In this document: positions 12,681-41,490 of the stretch, piece by piece
Position numbering within the stretch: the first letter of the stretch is position 1
Layout of the letters: each line of letters begins with the position of its first letter
Source of the DNA: Candidatus Omnitrophota bacterium
GTDB taxonomy: Bacteria; Omnitrophota; Gorgyraeia; Gorgyraeales; Gorgyraeaceae
NCBI GenBank assembly: GCA_018824145.1
Contig: JAHJHC010000114.1
Coordinates: 1-46,391 of the forward strand
DNA: 46,391 nucleotides
Direction of reading: 5' to 3'
Notes under the pieces: generated by a model
What the model saw: only the letters and a program-made list of their open reading frames with translations
Told to the model about the DNA's origin: nothing
Database searches by the model: none
Position numbers and translations under genes: made by a program

Positions 12681-13415
12681 TCACATTCGAAATTTTTCCC
12701 CCAGATAAATCTGGCGCGCCTTTGGATCACTAACCAATACTTCTTTACTTCCTGATATAAGTATTCTTCCATCCGCCATTATATACGAACGGTCAGTTAT
12801 TTCAAGTGTTTCTCTTACATTGTGGTCTGTAAGAAGTATACCCAAACCCTTTTTCTTAAGTCCTGCGATAATCTCCTGGGCATCTGCCACTGCAATAGGG
12901 TCTATGCCACTAAAGGGCTCATCAAGAAGTATAAATAAAGGATTCTTTACCAATGCCCTAGTGATTTCTAATCTGCGTCTCTCTCCTCCTGAAAGTAAAT
13001 AGGCCCTTTTCTTTGCTAAATGACTAATATGCAATTCATCGAGGAGCGTCTTTAACCTCTCTTTACGAGCTGTCCTTGAAATATCAAGTGTCTCAAGTAT
13101 AGCCATTATATTTTCTTCAACAGTGAGCTTTCTAAATATGGATGGTTCCTGTGAAAGATAACCGATTCCATTGCGGGAACGTTTATACATCGTTAGTTTT
13201 GTAATATCCTTGCCGTCAAAGATTATACTCCCTTGTTCCGGTTTCAACATACCTACAATCATGTAGAAAGTAGTAGTCTTTCCAGCGCCATTAGGTCCTA
13301 AAAGCCCTACGATCTCACCTCTTTTAATCCTTATACTTACGCCGTTTACTACTCTCTTACCGTCGTAAGACTTTGCAAGGCCTTCTACTTCAAGTAAATG
13401 TCCGTTATTGTTCAT
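12681..13415 (-). CDS. lptB: LPS export ABC transporter ATPase
   Basis: GPNGAGKTTTFYM, YLSQEPSIFRKL, LSGGERRRLEI, LLDEPFSGIDP, TDHNVRETL, YLGEKF. Confidence 0.97.
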   Translation of the reverse strand: MNNNGHLLEVEGLAKSYDGKRVVNGVSIRIKRGEIVGLLGPNGAGKTTTFYMIVGMLKPEQGSIIFDGKDITKLTMYKRSRNGIGYLSQEPSIFRKLTVEENIMAILETLDISRTARKERLKTLLDELHISHLAKKRAYLLSGGERRRLEITRALVKNPLFILLDEPFSGIDPIAVADAQEIIAGLKKKGLGILLTDHNVRETLEITDRSYIMADGRILISGSKEVLVSDPKARQIYLGEKFRM

Positions 13416-13423
13416 AAGATCCT

Positions 13424-14290
13424 CTATTGAATAATTAGTTTTGGGTTTTTAGGCAATATCACACGATCCTCATCAACCAGATAGATTGCCTTATCACTAT
13501 ATGTCACGCTTTCATTGTTTAGTATCCTTACATTGCCTCTGGCAACCACGCATTTTACACGCCGGGTAGTCGGCCTAAAATAAACATCTATACGGTCAGC
13601 TAATATATCAGTCCGTATATTTTCAACTCTCACATTATTAAGAAAAGTCGCTTTATTTTTCTTGTAATTCAATTCAAGAGGACCGTCGCATGTAATAATC
13701 GTATCCTGCCTGTCCTCCGACCTGTCCTCCGAAGCCTTGGCGTAGGAGGAAGCCTTGGCGTAGGAAGATACTCTGTACCCCAAAGTATCTGTCTCTGCAG
13801 ATCCTATATTAGCTACTACATCCTTTTTCAACATAGCGGTTCTATGTCTTAAATCGCAAAACGCACCTTTACCATCGGCCTGAAAATCAGCCCTGTTTAT
13901 ATTTACATAACTATCTGTAAAAACATTCTTAGCCTCTGCATTCCAGTCTAAAGAATCTGTTTTTAAAGTTGCCCCATCTGTTGATTTCAACACTACATCA
14001 TCTTCAAGATGGACTATGTTATCTTTCCTATTAAAGTCACCGAACCTGGCCTTTAATTTAAAGGCCTTATCCCCTGAAAATGCTATTGCTGAAATCTCAT
14101 CGAATTTAATCCTATCATCCACTACCTCTGCTGAGGCGCCGTTTAACTCCCATTTTTTCTCTCCGCCGTCTTCATATTGCACAAGAGAAAAACCACCAAC
14201 CTCCTGATTAGGTTCTATTCCCTCCTGTGCTAAGGAAAAAGGACACACATTTAAAATCAACAAAATAGTCAATACAATTGCTTTACACAT
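13424..14290 (-). CDS. lptC: LptC-like domain fused to an LptA/OstA-like domain
   Basis: N-terminal hydrophobic segment; KKWELNG...TLKTDSLDWN (LptC-like); ITCDGPLELNY...ATFLNNVRV...VARGNVRI...DKAIY (LptA-like); directly upstream of lptB. Confidence 0.8.
   Translation of the reverse strand: MCKAIVLTILLILNVCPFSLAQEGIEPNQEVGGFSLVQYEDGGEKKWELNGASAEVVDDRIKFDEISAIAFSGDKAFKLKARFGDFNRKDNIVHLEDDVVLKSTDGATLKTDSLDWNAEAKNVFTDSYVNINRADFQADGKGAFCDLRHRTAMLKKDVVANIGSAETDTLGYRVSSYAKASSYAKASEDRSEDRQDTIITCDGPLELNYKKNKATFLNNVRVENIRTDILADRIDVYFRPTTRRVKCVVARGNVRILNNESVTYSDKAIYLVDEDRVILPKNPKLIIQ
13709..13768. repeat. Two nested copies of a 30-bp palindromic element inside lptC
   Basis: Inner CCTGTCCTCCGAAGCCTTGGCGTAGGAGGA at 13721-13750 splits the outer copy (13709-13720 + 13751-13768). 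Confidence 0.9.
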
Positions 14291-14299
14291 CTCTTATCC

Positions 14300-15190
14300 C
14301 TATGGGCGGGTCTTCCACCTTTCATGAAACCAGACCCAGTGTGACGGAAATCTCCTTATGTAGTCTTCTATAACCTTTGTATATCTACCCGTATTTTCTA
14401 AGATATCCATATGTCTGTCTCCTGTAACACTTAACTCTATAGGCTCATCGATTAAAATCTCATGCCCAAATTTCTTATTCACTATAAAACACGGTATTAT
14501 AGGGGCGCCCGTTAAAAAATTCAGGACTGCCGGTCCATTAGGCGTATAAGCCAACCTGCCAAAAAAATCAACAAATACCCCCGAGATACTATGCATATCC
14601 TGGTCAGGCATCATCCCTACAAACTCATTCTTTTTGAGAAGGGCTATTACATCCTTTGCAGAGGCATCTCTATATAAGATATTTACTCCATGACGCTGTC
14701 TAACTTTACCCAGGAACCTCTCGAACTGTTCCATTCTAACGCGTCTCGCGATTACATTTACCGAATACCCTTTTATTGCGAAGTAATGGGCCAAAAACTC
14801 CCAATTTCCGAAATGCGCAGATAAAACTATCCCGCCCTTACCCTGTTTAATAAGGCATTCTATTACCTGAAGTCCTCTGCATCCTATATAATCATCTATA
14901 TTGCGCCTGTTAAACTTAGAAAGACTTATTACCTCTATAAAATTTTTACCTAGATTTCCAAAGAGCTCTTTTATTATGGCCTCTTTATCTTTTAGAGACT
15001 TAGTCTCACCAAAGGCAATATCAAGATTATTTAATGCAGTCCTACGTACCTTTTTAAGTATATAAAAAGCTGCCTTTCCAATACACTCGCCTATCTTTAG
15101 ACTTAACTTAATCGGCAAAATAAAAATAAAAAAACTCAAGAGTCTAAAGAGTAAAAAAAGAATAACCCGTCTCGGCTTTTTTCTAGCCAT
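14300..15190 (-). CDS. Lipid A late acyltransferase (LpxL/HtrB family)
   Basis: SAHFGNWE, MMPDQD, VFVDFFG, PSHWVWFHERWK. Confidence 0.92.
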   Translation of the reverse strand: MARKKPRRVILFLLFRLLSFFIFILPIKLSLKIGECIGKAAFYILKKVRRTALNNLDIAFGETKSLKDKEAIIKELFGNLGKNFIEVISLSKFNRRNIDDYIGCRGLQVIECLIKQGKGGIVLSAHFGNWEFLAHYFAIKGYSVNVIARRVRMEQFERFLGKVRQRHGVNILYRDASAKDVIALLKKNEFVGMMPDQDMHSISGVFVDFFGRLAYTPNGPAVLNFLTGAPIIPCFIVNKKFGHEILIDEPIELSVTGDRHMDILENTGRYTKVIEDYIRRFPSHWVWFHERWKTRP

Positions 15191-15933: not shown

Positions 15934-16592
15934 TTGTACCGTTTGCGAATTTAGCTACCCACCTGTCCCTTTTTTCAAGATTAAAAGTGTCCCCATTGTA
16001 AAAAATTGAAAGAAAACCCCATACTACTGTGTCTATATATAAGGAGGTGATAAAATATGGCTAGAATAGGTAGGGTTTACAGTGGTTGTTATTGCTATCA
16101 CATTATTACAAGAGGCAACCAAAAACAAAATGTTTTCTTAAATGAAAAAGACTACGCTAGATATGTTGGCATATTAAAAAGAGCTAAAAGAAAATACAAT
16201 ATTCTACTTTTTTCCTATTGCCTTATGCCAAATCATGTACATCTTTTGATTGAAACAAAATCATCTAGTAATATGTCGAACTTTATGCGCTGGATTAATC
16301 GAGGGTACGCAGCATATTTTAATACAGCTTACCAGAAAACAGGCCACTTGTGGCAAGGCAGGTTTAAGAGTAAACCTATATTAAAAGGGCAATATTTAAT
16401 TCATTGCGGAAACTATATCGAAGCTAACCCTGTTAGAGCAAATATTGCAGATGATATAGCAAACTATAAATGGAGTAGCTATAAAGAAAGATGTCTATTA
16501 TCTAAAAGTTCCATACTAGATGGGATAGTTAGGGGACAGTTTTAATCTTAAAATTGGGGACACTTTGATAGGTGAATTCGCAAACGGTACAA
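15934..16592 (+). mobile_element. 659-bp RAYT cassette bounded by 61-bp imperfect inverted repeats (outer 18 bp perfect)
   Basis: Left arm 15934-15994, right arm 16532-16592; TTGTACCGTTTGCGAATT / AATTCGCAAACGGTACAA; two TGTCCC/GGGACA boxes 24 bp apart in each arm; no target duplication seen. Confidence 0.85.
16057..16545 (+). CDS. REP-associated tyrosine transposase (Y1 HUH, IS200-like superfamily)
   Basis: YHIITRGN, YCLMPNHVHLL (HUH), GHLWQGRFKS, YIEANPVRA (catalytic Tyr), YKWSSY; RBS AAGGAGGTGA. Confidence 0.92.
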   Translation: MARIGRVYSGCYCYHIITRGNQKQNVFLNEKDYARYVGILKRAKRKYNILLFSYCLMPNHVHLLIETKSSSNMSNFMRWINRGYAAYFNTAYQKTGHLWQGRFKSKPILKGQYLIHCGNYIEANPVRANIADDIANYKWSSYKERCLLSKSSILDGIVRGQF

Positions 16593-31852: not shown

Positions 31853-32638
31853 TCAAAACAGACTAAGTTGCCTTGCACCTTTTATAAGGTCCGTCGCCTT
31901 CATCAAATCTTCAGGAGTATCTATACCGATTGTATCAAATTTTGTCTCTATGACCTTTATCTTGTACCCATTCTCTATTACTCTAAGCTGTTCCAGTTTT
32001 TCACTTTTTTCAAGTCTGGATTGAGGCAGACTCTTGAAGGTAAAAAGAAAATCTTTGGTATATGCGTAAATGCCGATGTGTTTATAGTGAGTGACGATTC
32101 CTCGCTCACCTGCAGCCCGCCTGTCCCCCGAAGCCTTGGCGAAGGAGGATAACAAATATGGTATAGGGGCGCGGGAAAAATATAACGCAAAGCCTTTCCT
32201 ATCCATCACAACCTTTACCACATTGGGATCCAAAAAGTCTTTTTCATTTCCAATCTTATGACAAAGGGTCGCCATGTGTATGGAGTCATCCCTTAAAATA
32301 GGATCTACCACATCATCTATCATCGTCGGATGTATAAGAGGTTCATCTGCCTGGATATTAACCACGACCTTTGTATCGATAGAACTCACGACTTCAGTAA
32401 GCCTGTCAGAACCACTTTTATGTGCCTTTGAAGTATATATTACCTTTGCACCAAAACCCTTAGCAAAATTATAAATACGCTTATCATCAGTTGCTATAAT
32501 AATGTCTTCTATTGTCTTTGCCTTCTTAGCATTTTCCCATGTGTGTTGGATAACTGACTTCCCGCACAAATCTGCTAAAAGCTTTCCTTCAAACCTTGTG
32601 GAACCATAACGTGCCGGAATTATCCCTATAACTTCCAT
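31853..32638 (-). CDS. kdsB: CMP-Kdo synthetase
   Basis: IPARYGSTRF, SGSDR, NIQADEP, ALYFSRAPIP, KHIGIYAY, EKLEQLR. Confidence 0.96.
   Translation of the reverse strand: MEVIGIIPARYGSTRFEGKLLADLCGKSVIQHTWENAKKAKTIEDIIIATDDKRIYNFAKGFGAKVIYTSKAHKSGSDRLTEVVSSIDTKVVVNIQADEPLIHPTMIDDVVDPILRDDSIHMATLCHKIGNEKDFLDPNVVKVVMDRKGFALYFSRAPIPYLLSSFAKASGDRRAAGERGIVTHYKHIGIYAYTKDFLFTFKSLPQSRLEKSEKLEQLRVIENGYKIKVIETKFDTIGIDTPEDLMKATDLIKGARQLSLF
32120..32149. repeat. 30-bp palindromic element in frame inside kdsB
   Basis: CCTGTCCCCCGAAGCCTTGGCGAAGGAGGA; 28/30 identical to 13721-13750; encodes SSFAKASGDR. Confidence 0.9.
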
Positions 32639-39423: not shown

Positions 39424-40202
39424 CAATCCTCGTCTCTATGCTCCTTGAGCCAGGTATAAAACCCTGTTATCTCAATCCAAAACACAAATAAATTATCAGA
39501 GGTCCTCGATATGCGCAACCGTTTCATCGCGAATATATCATGTTTGGGATATTTTCTTCCCGGATTTGTAGCTACTGCTATAGTGTATCCTGCCTTCATG
39601 ACCTTGTCTCTTATATAATCATTAAAAGCACCTACCGGATAACTGAACGAAGTAACATCTTTTCTGATATGGCTTTCAATCGCGCGTTTGGAATCAAAGA
39701 TCTCTACGCCTAACTTCTGTTCCGAGGAGTCCGGCAGATACGCATGGGTCATTGTGTGACTACCGATAGAAATTAGTCCGCTCTCTGACATCTCAATTAC
39801 CTGACCCCATGTTAAATATCCATCCATTCCGATAAGACCAGGTGCTATGAAAATAGTTGCAGGAAGCCCCAGTTTTTTTAAAACAGGGTAAGCCTCTTTA
39901 TAATTATTCTCGTAACCGTCATCAAAAGTAATGGCAACCGTCTTATAGGGACTATTACCCTTTCCCATCAAACCCGGCAAGTCATGAAGTCTCACGACAT
40001 TATACCCATATTGCTTTAAAAAGGTCATCTGTCTCTCGAAACTATCAGGAGAAACACTTAATTTAGAAAACATAGCATCCTCATCAATCTTGTGATACAT
40101 AAGAATAGGAATAACATACTGTGATTTGGCATATACCAAGAAACTTAAAAGTAAAAACGCAAAAGTAAAAATTACAACTAAAAATTTAAAATTTTTTTTC
40201 AT
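39423..40202 (-). CDS. Polysaccharide deacetylase (CE4, NodB-like) with N-terminal signal/TM
   Basis: PILMYH, ITFDDGY, GSHTMTH, FSYPVG. Confidence 0.92.
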   Translation of the reverse strand: MKKNFKFLVVIFTFAFLLLSFLVYAKSQYVIPILMYHKIDEDAMFSKLSVSPDSFERQMTFLKQYGYNVVRLHDLPGLMGKGNSPYKTVAITFDDGYENNYKEAYPVLKKLGLPATIFIAPGLIGMDGYLTWGQVIEMSESGLISIGSHTMTHAYLPDSSEQKLGVEIFDSKRAIESHIRKDVTSFSYPVGAFNDYIRDKVMKAGYTIAVATNPGRKYPKHDIFAMKRLRISRTSDNLFVFWIEITGFYTWLKEHRDED

Positions 40203-40237
40203 TTTTAATTTTACCTTGTGGTTTTGTCTTTTTACTT

Positions 40238-41347
40238 TTAACTTTTTACTTCAATTTCTCTATACAACTCCGCCACCTTGTCCACCATTCCATTAATAGA
40301 AAACCTTTCTATGACTATTTCCCTACCAGCCTGGGACATCTTTTTGTAAAGCTCTTTTTGTTTCAATAGCTTCAATGTAGGCTCGACCAAAAATTCAGGC
40401 CGCGATGGAGGAACAAGAAATCCATTAACGCCGTCCTCAATGACATTGCGTATACCACCCACATCTGTAGCAACAACAGGTTTTCCCGCAGCCAGCGCTT
40501 CTATAGCAGCAATACCCAGGCCTTCTTTCCTTCTCGGAGCGAACATAAATACATCCAGGATAGACAGGATGTTTACGGTATTTATCTGCGGTTTTATAAA
40601 TATCACGTTCTCTGTTAGATTGAGACGATAAGCCAGATTTACTATATTCAAATACTCCTTGCCCTCACCCACAAAGACAAGTTGCACATTCGGTTTCTGT
40701 TTAAGAATATTGTAAAGCGCATACAAAAGCACATCATGCCCCTTGTCAGGCGTAAACCTGGAGATTGTCCCGATAATCGAATGGTCTTTTTTTATCCCGA
40801 ATCTATCCTTTAGATCATCCTTTTCTTTTTCTGAAAAATCTCTAAGGAATTTTTTGACATCTATGCCGTTATATATTAAAGCGACTTTATGCCGATCCAC
40901 CCGGAAATAACTCAAAAGATGGGACTGCACCGCGTCACTTATCGCGATCACACGCTCTCCCCATGAAGGCAATAAAGTCCTGCCTATATTTTTTCTGAAA
41001 AAACCATGACAGGTCGTGATAAAACCAACCTTGCATAATCTTGACACAAAAAAACCTACCACCTGCGCAACTCGTGTCTGTGCATGTATCACATCTATAT
41101 CTACTGCCTTAACTATCTTTGTGATCTCAAAAACAGCCCTAAAGACTTTAGGGCTCAATTCGGATTTAGTAGATAAATCAACTTTTAGATGTGAGACATC
41201 TCCGGCTGTTAACTCCGGCACTAAAACTCCTCCGCTTGAGGCGACAAAGACACTTTCACCTTTCGCCTTTAATGCCTTAGCCAGAGTCACAGTATACGTA
41301 GATATGCCGCCTATATTGAGATGGGTTGTGAGTAGTAATATTCGCAT
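40238..41347 (-). CDS. GT4 glycosyltransferase
   Basis: GGI, IYNGID, KGHDVL, EGLGIAAIEALAAGKPVVATDVGG; start reassigned to ATG 41347. Confidence 0.93.
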   Translation of the reverse strand: MRILLLTTHLNIGGISTYTVTLAKALKAKGESVFVASSGGVLVPELTAGDVSHLKVDLSTKSELSPKVFRAVFEITKIVKAVDIDVIHAQTRVAQVVGFFVSRLCKVGFITTCHGFFRKNIGRTLLPSWGERVIAISDAVQSHLLSYFRVDRHKVALIYNGIDVKKFLRDFSEKEKDDLKDRFGIKKDHSIIGTISRFTPDKGHDVLLYALYNILKQKPNVQLVFVGEGKEYLNIVNLAYRLNLTENVIFIKPQINTVNILSILDVFMFAPRRKEGLGIAAIEALAAGKPVVATDVGGIRNVIEDGVNGFLVPPSRPEFLVEPTLKLLKQKELYKKMSQAGREIVIERFSINGMVDKVAELYREIEVKS

Positions 41348-41357
41348 AAAAATTATA

Positions 41358-41490
41358 ATGACAAATGACAAAATTCAAAGCACAAAATAAATTCAAAATT
41401 CAAATAACAAATTTCAAAACAGAAGTTTTGTCATTTGATATTTGTGATTTGTCATTATTTTGGTATTTGTGATTTGTCATTTGAAATTTT
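41358..41490. repeat. Heptamer-periodic inverted repeat array (CAAAnnn units facing TTTGTnA units)
   Basis: CAAATGA CAAAATT CAAAGCA...CAAATAA CAAATTT then TTTGTCA TTTGATA TTTGTGA TTTGTCA...TTTGTGA TTTGTCA TTTGAAA. Confidence 0.8.

Follow-up and report, generated by a model that had tools for sequence, protein, structure and literature searches.

A Probable Self-Nested Pair of 30-nt Hairpin Micro-Elements in lptC of an Omnitrophota Bacterium

A 60-bp block in the essential gene lptC of a Candidatus Omnitrophota bacterium is probably best explained as two 30-nt hairpin micro-elements, one lying inside the other, of a precise mobile unit that would be moved by a trans-acting enzyme. The unit is a real dispersed element, which is patchy among the relatives of the host and occurs in many phyla and phages; it is not peculiar to the genome in which it was noticed. 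Copies of the unit lie time and again within other copies, and they do so at two defined positions: the 5' GAA loop (CCGA↓AGCC, the arrow marking the point of insertion) and the apical loop. It is among the smallest pieces of DNA that behave like a site-specific mobile element. The window, that is the whole stretch of DNA that was analysed, comprises 46,391 nt of contig JAHJHC010000114.1 from assembly GCA_018824145.1 (genome G000; 1.73 Mb in 149 contigs, 39% G+C).

The doubled block in lptC

The block and its host gene are made up as follows.

13424..14290, minus strand: host gene lptC, LptC fused to an LptA/LptD_N-like domain, 288 aa (Pfam)
13709..13720, plus strand: A1, the 5' part of the split outer copy, 12 nt (tag CCTG, left arm TCCTCC and GA)
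13721..13750, plus strand: intact inner 30-nt copy (tag CCTG, 6-bp stem TCCTCC/GGAGGA, GAA/GTA internal loop, GCC-TT-GGC cap)
13751..13768, plus strand: B2, the 3' part of the split outer copy, 18 nt (right arm GGAAGA, with one mismatch to its own left arm)

On the plus strand, positions 13709-13768 read CCTGTCCTCCGA followed by CCTGTCCTCCGAAGCCTTGGCGTAGGAGGA and AGCCTTGGCGTAGGAAGA. With A standing for the 12-nt left part of the unit and B for the 18-nt right part, the layout is A-A-B-B. Joining 13709-13720 to 13751-13768 restores a 30-mer that is identical to the inner copy at 29 of 30 positions, the single difference being G>A at 13766. This agrees with the original prediction, in which an intact 30-mer splits a second one into 12 and 18 nt; by eye, the position of the cut can be shifted leftward by 1 or 2 nt. 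The repeat search returned the hairpin arms of the inner copy (13725-13736 and 13739-13750) as well as a 94% match of 13749-13766 to 13731-13748. The inner unit folds as TCCTCC-GAA-GCC-TT-GGC-GTA-GGAGGA, in agreement with the predicted form TCCTCC-N3-GCC-TT-GGC-N3-GGAGGA, and it scores 50.5 bits (E 5.5e-11) with the covariance model R1, which was built from 65 copies. Allowing up to 3 mismatches, the 30-mer was matched twice in the window compared to 0.00 expected from 100 shuffles. A tandem duplication of the whole unit was rejected; it predicts A-B-A-B, and positions of the block that lie 30 nt apart do not match.

A different way to arrive at A-A-B-B is slippage. One resident copy in lptC would then have undergone two separate duplications, of 12 nt on the left and 18 nt on the right, without a second insertion. 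TRF scores two perfect adjacent tandem repeats in the block, a 12-nt unit present 2.0 times (13709-13732, 100% matches) and an 18-nt unit present 1.9 times (13731-13765, 100%). As the two lptC copies are 29/30 identical, nesting is indistinguishable from a 12-nt plus 18-nt duplication at the locus itself. Together with the alleles and the copies in other genomes described below, we regard this origin as rather unlikely.

Both junctions of the block were recovered in Logan contigs, which derive from an independent k-mer assembly. Two contigs of the coded run X1, possibly the source sample itself, match the region with 0 differences: one extends over 13300-13750 and joins an lptC flank to A-A-B, the other extends over 13724-14300 and joins B-B to the opposite lptC flank. 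Record 19 of run X3 contains the lptC flank with the A-A junction, whereas the contigs of runs X2 and X4 do not reach the junctions. Each of these contigs of X1 and X3 spans a part of the block, and the number of single Logan contigs spanning all of it is 0. Reads of a one-copy lptC might have been mis-joined with other repeat copies of the metagenome. The element is abundant in the same metagenomes: the 30-mer stands in other surroundings in many further Logan contigs of all four runs. Owing to such contigs, the bins 13708-13775 show an about 4- to 7-fold higher depth in X1, and the rise is still greater in the remaining runs. A one-copy protein is also present in the database. A one-copy allele, however, cannot yield the junction words seen in X1 and X3, and an assembly artefact, which the original prediction had considered as an outcome speaking against it, is highly improbable with the A-A and B-B junctions both present in X1.

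Architecture and covariation of the unit

The unit consists of a 26-nt hairpin and a 4-nt tag, 30 nt in total. The tag is usually CCTG or CTTG, the cap is GCC-TT-GGC and the internal loop is a symmetric GAA/GAA. A scan of one genome per prokaryote species for the 18-nt core gave at least 120 stretches, and 123 instances were listed. Among these listed instances the tag was CTTG in 26, CCTG in 22 (48/123 for both forms), TTTA in 7 and CTCG in 5. Outside the searched core lie four further pairs, which are Watson-Crick in 103, 112, 102 and 102 of the 123 instances among the matches listed. Shuffling gave means of 45, 75, 86 and 54 and maxima of 60, 85, 93 and 69 for the same pairs, and the observed numbers were never reached. 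The fifth pair is at chance level in the 123 listed instances. Since four pairs covary and the fifth does not exceed chance, the stem is fixed at 6 bp, while its sequence is free. The folding energy of one unit, with z between -1.7 and -2.2, is weak evidence alone.

We estimate that a uniform base composition would already give a few tens of matches in the species-wide scan. The count alone consequently proves little, and the covariation is the decisive evidence.

Alleles and filled or empty sites in lptC

Pfam places LptC at residues 26-160 and LptD_N/LptA at residues 205-284 of the host protein. The block is read through from a codon boundary as residues 175-194 (peptide SSYAKASSYAKASEDRSEDR), and its two units supply 20 extra amino acids to a flexible linker of the lptC product. 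The unit thus spans ten codons, is in frame and lies in the linker between the LptC-like and the LptA-like domain, as had been proposed from the DNA letters.

A search of 41 related genomes yielded LptC in 39, and in an alignment of 30 loci the SSYAKA block occurs in 0 of the 29 others. The closest database relative of the window's LptC, P0002 (68% identity), is without the unit. P0001 is a 278-aa LptC that is identical to the window's protein except for a single 10-aa unit (...VSSYAKASEDRQDT...). The original prediction had called for an alignment of lptC orthologues with zero, one and two copies; all three forms were found at the protein level, in P0002, P0001 and the window, respectively, the one-copy allele being known as a protein. 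One metagenome scan with the lptC flank for 0-, 1- and 2-copy DNA, from which near-identical records were possibly excluded, returned 0 stretches. A linker that is ancestral in LptC, the outcome that would have spoken against an insertion, did not occur: it is ruled out by the insert-free orthologues (0/29 loci), by P0002, which has no SSYAKA, and by the empty site of genome G013.

This empty site forms one exact pair with a filled one. In genome G024, which belongs to another genus than the host of the window, the LptC linker also holds CCTGTCCGCCGAAGCCTTGGCGAAGGCGGA, oriented the other way (peptide PVRRSLGEGG) and flanked by ...ACAGCG and AACAACG.... Its congener G013 reads ...ACAGCG↓AACAACGAACAACGGACAACG... 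at the corresponding position. Exactly 30 nt are added in G024, the boundaries are not shiftable and no target-site duplication is present in this filled/empty pair. The unit is thus inserted precisely, adding 30 nt and duplicating no target site. The site itself is the edge of a three-unit heptamer array.

The lptC doublet is likely to be a recent self-insertion. Because the one-copy allele still exists, with an otherwise identical protein, the resident copy would have received a copy of itself recently. Slippage would need two independent events within the same short time.

Further copies in the genome

Allowing up to 4 mismatches, the 30-mer occurs at six places in G000. A search with nhmmer adds two 45-nt forms that carry a GCGAAAGC mini-hairpin in the cap, one in the linker of a GltD-like protein and one at the N-terminus of MutS. 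By sequence, eight loci are clear: LptC, KdsB, an FtsK linker, an Lnt linker, PyrD, the GltD-like linker, the MutS N-terminus and one intergenic site. Six of these eight lie in frame in housekeeping hosts (LptC, KdsB, FtsK, Lnt, PyrD and the GltD-like protein). The prediction would have been refuted by a lack of further genomic copies; the search for the 30-mer gave the opposite result. A match with 5 mismatches in topA (C46:86647) is either an old copy or due to chance. With the R1 model 11 places were found in G000, three of which are 52-nt relatives that start at the CCA end of the tRNA-Val, tRNA-Ala and tRNA-Leu genes.

The second copy in the window resides in kdsB.

31853..32638, minus strand: host gene kdsB, CMP-KDO synthetase type (Pfam CTP_transf_3)
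32120..32149, plus strand: second copy of the unit, 2 mismatches, in frame, read as SSFAKASGDR (KdsB residues 164-173, variable surface loop)

The KdsB loop is about 9-10 residues longer than in 23 relatives, of which 0 contain the motif. The four minus-orientation genic copies share one frame, S-[SA]-[YF]-A-K-[AT]-S-x-D-R, and all three frames of that strand are open. In total, the unit is without stop codon in five of six frames (T variant) or in all six (A variant). Since it measures ten codons and is stop-free in five to six of six frames, genic copies persist in essential proteins, where they form patches of 10 residues in linkers and loops.

Distribution across genomes and phages

Searched with at most 1 mismatch, the 18-nt core was found in 10 of 38 genomes of the family (28 matches, 0 with the reversed control) and in 54 of 401 sampled Omnitrophota genomes (195 matches compared to 12 control matches). 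Most genomes with the element have 1-8 copies and four complete chromosomes have 6-10 each, while bursts of 40, 27 and 11 copies occur in single Omnitrophota genomes (40 matches in G399, 27 in G338). The phyla among the listed instances of the species-wide scan include Verrucomicrobiota, Alpha-, Gamma- and Deltaproteobacteria, Patescibacteria, Bacteroidota, Acidobacteriota, Planctomycetota, Elusimicrobia, Armatimonadetes, Bacillota and others. Cultivated non-pathogens such as Niastella soli, Brevifollis gellanilyticus and Bradyrhizobium strains are among the carriers. In IMG/VR, 66 stretches with 69 instances were found, 58 of which have at least three of the four extra pairs, and the neighbours of these copies are true phage genes (portal, capsid, Mu-like). 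In the family genomes the unit very often lies between tandem heptamer units that end in TG or CG; observed flanks are TGTCTTG, TAACCCG, CTGTGAA, TTTTGCG and AACAACG, and further cases are found in other phyla.

Some of these locations would suit a hairpin that is mainly a functional signal, such as a tRNA 3'-end or terminator hairpin or a mask of ribosome-binding sites, with the genic copies as by-products. Besides the 52-nt relatives at tRNA CCA ends in G000, in other phyla the 26-nt hairpin directly adjoins the 3' ends of tRNAs, and in several phage contigs the GGAGG arm precedes an ATG by 6-9 nt. In the three pairs beside the core, G-T pairs outnumber A-C pairs 22 to 4, which fits the folding of one particular strand. 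Against a signal as the main role stand the six of eight G000 loci within coding frames, in both orientations, the patchy occurrence with bursts in some genomes of the phylum and the empty orthologous sites. Self-nesting serves no obvious signal either. At the gathering threshold, Rfam gave no family at the element in the window, and at E values up to 10 on six loci it gave no element family, only miRNA-like matches to unrelated long palindromes. We consider a mainly signalling role improbable. A function as signal and mobility can coexist.

Nesting and insertion targets

The arrangement seen in lptC recurs elsewhere. The pattern of core, 0-30 nt and GCCTTGGCG gave at least 125 instances; among the 125 listed, 18 have the B-B spacing of lptC (N=5) and 25 are head-to-tail copies (17 nt). 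In about 10 of the 18 N=5 cases, classified by eye, both halves are doubled, whereas only 4 of the 123 ordinary copies listed are preceded by ...CCGA. This is difficult to reconcile with slippage as the only process. The pattern of the A-A junction, CCGA↓YYTG, gave at least 121 instances, and a B-like half follows in 31 of those listed. In 25 of these 31 the arms of inner and outer copy differ. Nested pairing is the better one there in 16 cases and crossed pairing in 1, with 8 ties; duplication does not predict such a preference. Clean nested cases are L478, L465, L473, L493 and L247; since their arms differ and pair in a nested manner, they can only have formed by one element being inserted into a different one. 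The recurrence of CCGA↓AGCC nesting with different inner and outer stems likewise points to insertion and not to duplication.

Slippage has left its traces as well. Tandem arrays of the 18-nt half alone (A-B-B-B...), without a doubled left half, exist at L268, L272, L288, L300 and L325, and unbalanced A-A-A-B-B forms at L225 and L329. Such half-unit arrays and unbalanced forms indicate that slippage acts on these repeats too. The ftsK copy of G000, with the layout A-A-B, a doubled and diverged left half and a single right half, fits the same process.

A third pattern, which was retrieved completely with 34 stretches, placed the nest in the apical loop 22 times and in the 3' GAA loop 0 times. 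In the 90 listed junctions that have no B-like half, the right flank begins with AGG in 22 and with AGC in 20, and several of these are plain hairpins whose GAA loop is split as C-GA↓A-G. The left flanks of 67 tagged copies are CGA in 10, TTG in 8, TGG in 5 and others in the remainder. The insertion points differ between sites: some are CGA↓AG, that of G013 is CG↓AA, and the heptamer arrays show YG↓.

Nesting had been attributed in the original prediction to repeated enzymatic insertion. The insertion part is supported by elements found between CCGA and AGCC in other phyla and by the precise 30 nt of the G024/G013 pair; the enzymatic part is our inference, as the searches described in the following section found no enzyme.

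Search for an enzyme

The window contains one open reading frame of a candidate enzyme class.

16057..16545, plus strand: Y1/IS200-like HUH ORF, 162 aa, linked to the element by none of the results

Neither a copy of the element nor another hairpin was found flanking this ORF, and none of the five PF01797 (Y1) loci in G000 coincides with or flanks an element copy. The RAYT link suggested at the outset has found no support. With its subfamilies pooled, PF01797 is present in 36 of 38 genomes of the host's taxonomic family and the element in 10 of 38; genomes that carry the element have on average 3.2 PF01797 matches and the others 2.4, again with pooled subfamilies. As Y1/RAYT homologues are nearly ubiquitous, they are uninformative about the enzyme, and it is doubtful that a Y1/HUH protein acts on the element.

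No transposase or homing-type nuclease family was matched by Pfam among 83 ORFs beside the phage copies; L388 supplied one phage integrase and L355 one helicase domain of the restriction type (ResIII). Clustering of the ORFs near phage copies gave no recurring enzyme; the largest shared family, at 8 of 66 loci, corresponds to related phage structural modules. PF05635, the rRNA intervening-sequence protein, was not found in G000, and the result for GIY-YIG as a candidate enzyme was negative.

Comparison with known systems

The closest known kind are the SDR elements of cyanobacteria. These small dispersed repeats, SDR1-8 of Nostoc and its relatives among the heterocystous cyanobacteria, were reportedly described by Elhai et al. 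in 2008 and are said to be hairpin-forming sequences of 21-27 nt with nested copies, a location in tandem heptamer arrays and precise insertions. We know of no enzyme for them. By these features both kinds share the very small size (21-27 nt compared to 26-30 nt here), the hairpin, nesting, heptamer arrays, precise insertion and the missing enzyme. At the level of such descriptions, differences lie in the hosts, which here comprise Omnitrophota, phages and over a dozen further phyla. The present element has, in addition, defined self-insertion points, a C-GA↓A-G loop target and many copies in frame in essential genes. The work of Elhai et al. on SDRs is cited in PMC3116915, PMC3733652 and PMC13756078.

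REP sequences and REPINs are imperfect palindromes of 20-40 nt, one end of which bears an unpaired tag of 4 nt; their stems contain G-T pairs, and some copies are genic (Bertels & Rainey 2011, PMC3116915; Di Nocera et al. 2013, PMC3733652). The palindrome with its unpaired end tag, the G-T pairs and the occasional genic location are all shared with our unit. The REP tag is GTAG or CGTC (PMC3733652), whereas the tag here is YYTG. Further, copy numbers are low and most G000 copies are intragenic (6/8), while REPs are mostly extragenic and of high copy number. Unlike in REPIN-RAYT systems, none of the five Y1 genes of G000 is flanked by a copy. REP families are for the most part species-specific; the core of the present unit, in contrast, is conserved between phyla.

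The original prediction had compared the unit to Rickettsia palindromic elements. Those are about 100-150 bp long and are not known from outside Rickettsia. PMC3184786 and PMC3733652 cite them from Ogata et al. 2000. The likeness holds for the lifestyle, that is a palindromic repeat inserted in frame in protein genes and translated, and the unit is indeed several times shorter; with its 30 nt, its occurrence across phyla and its self-nesting, it differs in other respects, and SDR and REP elements are nearer relatives in kind.

Members of the IS200/IS605 family move by single-strand 'peel and paste' transposition with hairpin recognition and without target-site duplication. Each end of these elements has a hairpin, insertion takes place 3' of a fixed tetra- or pentanucleotide, which does not become part of the element, and they encode TnpA or need it. 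The missing target-site duplication in the G024/G013 pair and the hairpin are common features, and a preference for folded single-stranded DNA of the IS200/IS605 type would explain insertion into loops. In contrast, only one hairpin is present here, the left flanks vary, and none of the results ties the element to TnpA.

PMC13037366 describes GCGNAGC / GCGNNAGC as a very stable single-stranded mini-hairpin DNA motif, and C-G-A-A-G-C forms the core of GCGNAGC. Both the favoured target C-GA↓A-G-C and the cap GCGAAAGC found in 45-nt copies match such mini-hairpin sequences exactly. The mini-hairpin is a structural motif and not a mobile element, and it may be linked to insertion. A literature search for the core string, with supplements outside its scope, gave only unrelated primer sequences; a second one for Omnitrophota repeats and for SDRs and heptamers, of the same scope, returned no description of the element.

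Conclusion

In the mechanism that we propose, a trans-acting enzyme would recognize the conserved core together with the hairpin shape, would cut out or copy the unit at fixed ends and would paste it into unpaired loops of folded single-stranded DNA. In lptC, an older resident copy would recently have received a copy of itself in this way. Beyond this, the 26-30-nt hairpin could quite possibly be an active, phage-borne cross-phylum element, which a widely distributed enzyme pastes site-specifically into C-GA↓A-G and into apical loops of single-stranded hairpins including its own. It might then be the smallest known site-specific mobile DNA and a general source of 10-residue insertions in the linkers of essential proteins, in bacteria with small genomes (Omnitrophota, Patescibacteria).

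If a non-coding unit of 30 nt moves precisely across phyla and phages, there must be a conserved machinery that recognizes a DNA hairpin of this very small size. Concrete substrates for seeking it are the defined ends, the defined points of self-insertion and the target C-GA↓A-G. For assembly and protein alignment the element is a practical caution. It explains odd low-complexity patches (SS[YF]AKAS.DR, LSSEALAKE, PVRRSLGEGG) in essential proteins of uncultivated bacteria and shows a route by which essential proteins gain linker insertions.

Relatives, partial arrays and phage copies of the element

Three 52-nt relatives of the element were located in the Omnitrophota genome (G000), each starting exactly at the CCA end of a tRNA-Val, tRNA-Ala or tRNA-Leu gene:
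C96:25548-25599, 52-nt relative at the CCA end of a tRNA gene
C74:17125-17176, 52-nt relative at the CCA end of a tRNA gene
C79:31406-31457, 52-nt relative at the CCA end of a tRNA gene
Their stem reads CCATCC/GGATGG and is set in the same GAAG...CGTAGG frame as in the element. The element's 26-nt hairpin, with the stem CCAGCC/GGCTGG, also adjoins tRNA 3' ends in other phyla.

In other phyla, the right-hand part of the element (18, 13 or 12 nt) is repeated in tandem with at least three units at seven loci (L268, L272, L288, L300, L325, L418 and L431). L431 and a further locus, L426, look like three-deep nests placed at the apical loop. Several phage contigs from IMG/VR (L361, L372, L373, L397) carry the hairpin 3' arm GGAGG 6-9 nt 5' of an ATG, and this arm could be a stem-masked Shine-Dalgarno sequence.

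Other repeats and the Y1/IS200-like ORF

The window also holds intergenic AT-rich heptamer arrays, composed of mirror-image pairs (e.g. AATGACA/CAAAATT facing TTTGTCA/TTTGTGA) and able to fold as long hairpins:
40160-40252, AT-rich heptamer array
41350-41490, AT-rich heptamer array

A second palindromic repeat, TGCCAGACAGCCCTAGCCCTCTGGCA, was found in G000 at the following positions:
C7:211, C54:5086, C74:13129, C76:106, C91:97
C103:96, C104:3341, C112:833, C114:31533, C146:370
The distance to the end of the contig is about 100 nt for several of the copies, so this repeat is probably a piece of a larger, assembly-breaking one.

Two long, perfect-looking palindromes gave miRNA-like Rfam scores below the gathering score and are unrelated to the element:
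L001:79-144 (G000 C69), both strands
L002:568-699 (G000 C116), both strands

A Y1/IS200-like HUH ORF, one of five in the genome, is situated 2.3 kb from lptC:
16057-16545, plus strand, 162 aa
Its flanks contain neither terminal hairpins nor copies of the element.

Intragenic copies and the LptC linker

All four intragenic copies in minus orientation in G000, in LptC, KdsB, FtsK (C110:48528) and PyrD (C88:17162), share one reading frame, SS[YF]AKAS.DR. The other two frames are open as well, yet unused; the single shared frame could reflect peptide selection or a phase preference. Inside topA, a 30-mer match with five mismatches (C46:86647-86676, peptide ALLRQGLVGQA) could be either the eroded remnant of an old copy or a product of chance.

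In other genera, the LptC linker contains tandem heptamers translated in frame, with four units of GCGACGA in the related genome G021 (L010) and three of AACAACG in G013 and G024 (L021 and L017, respectively). Owing to these in-frame arrays, we conclude that the LptC linker repeatedly receives, or at least tolerates, insertions.
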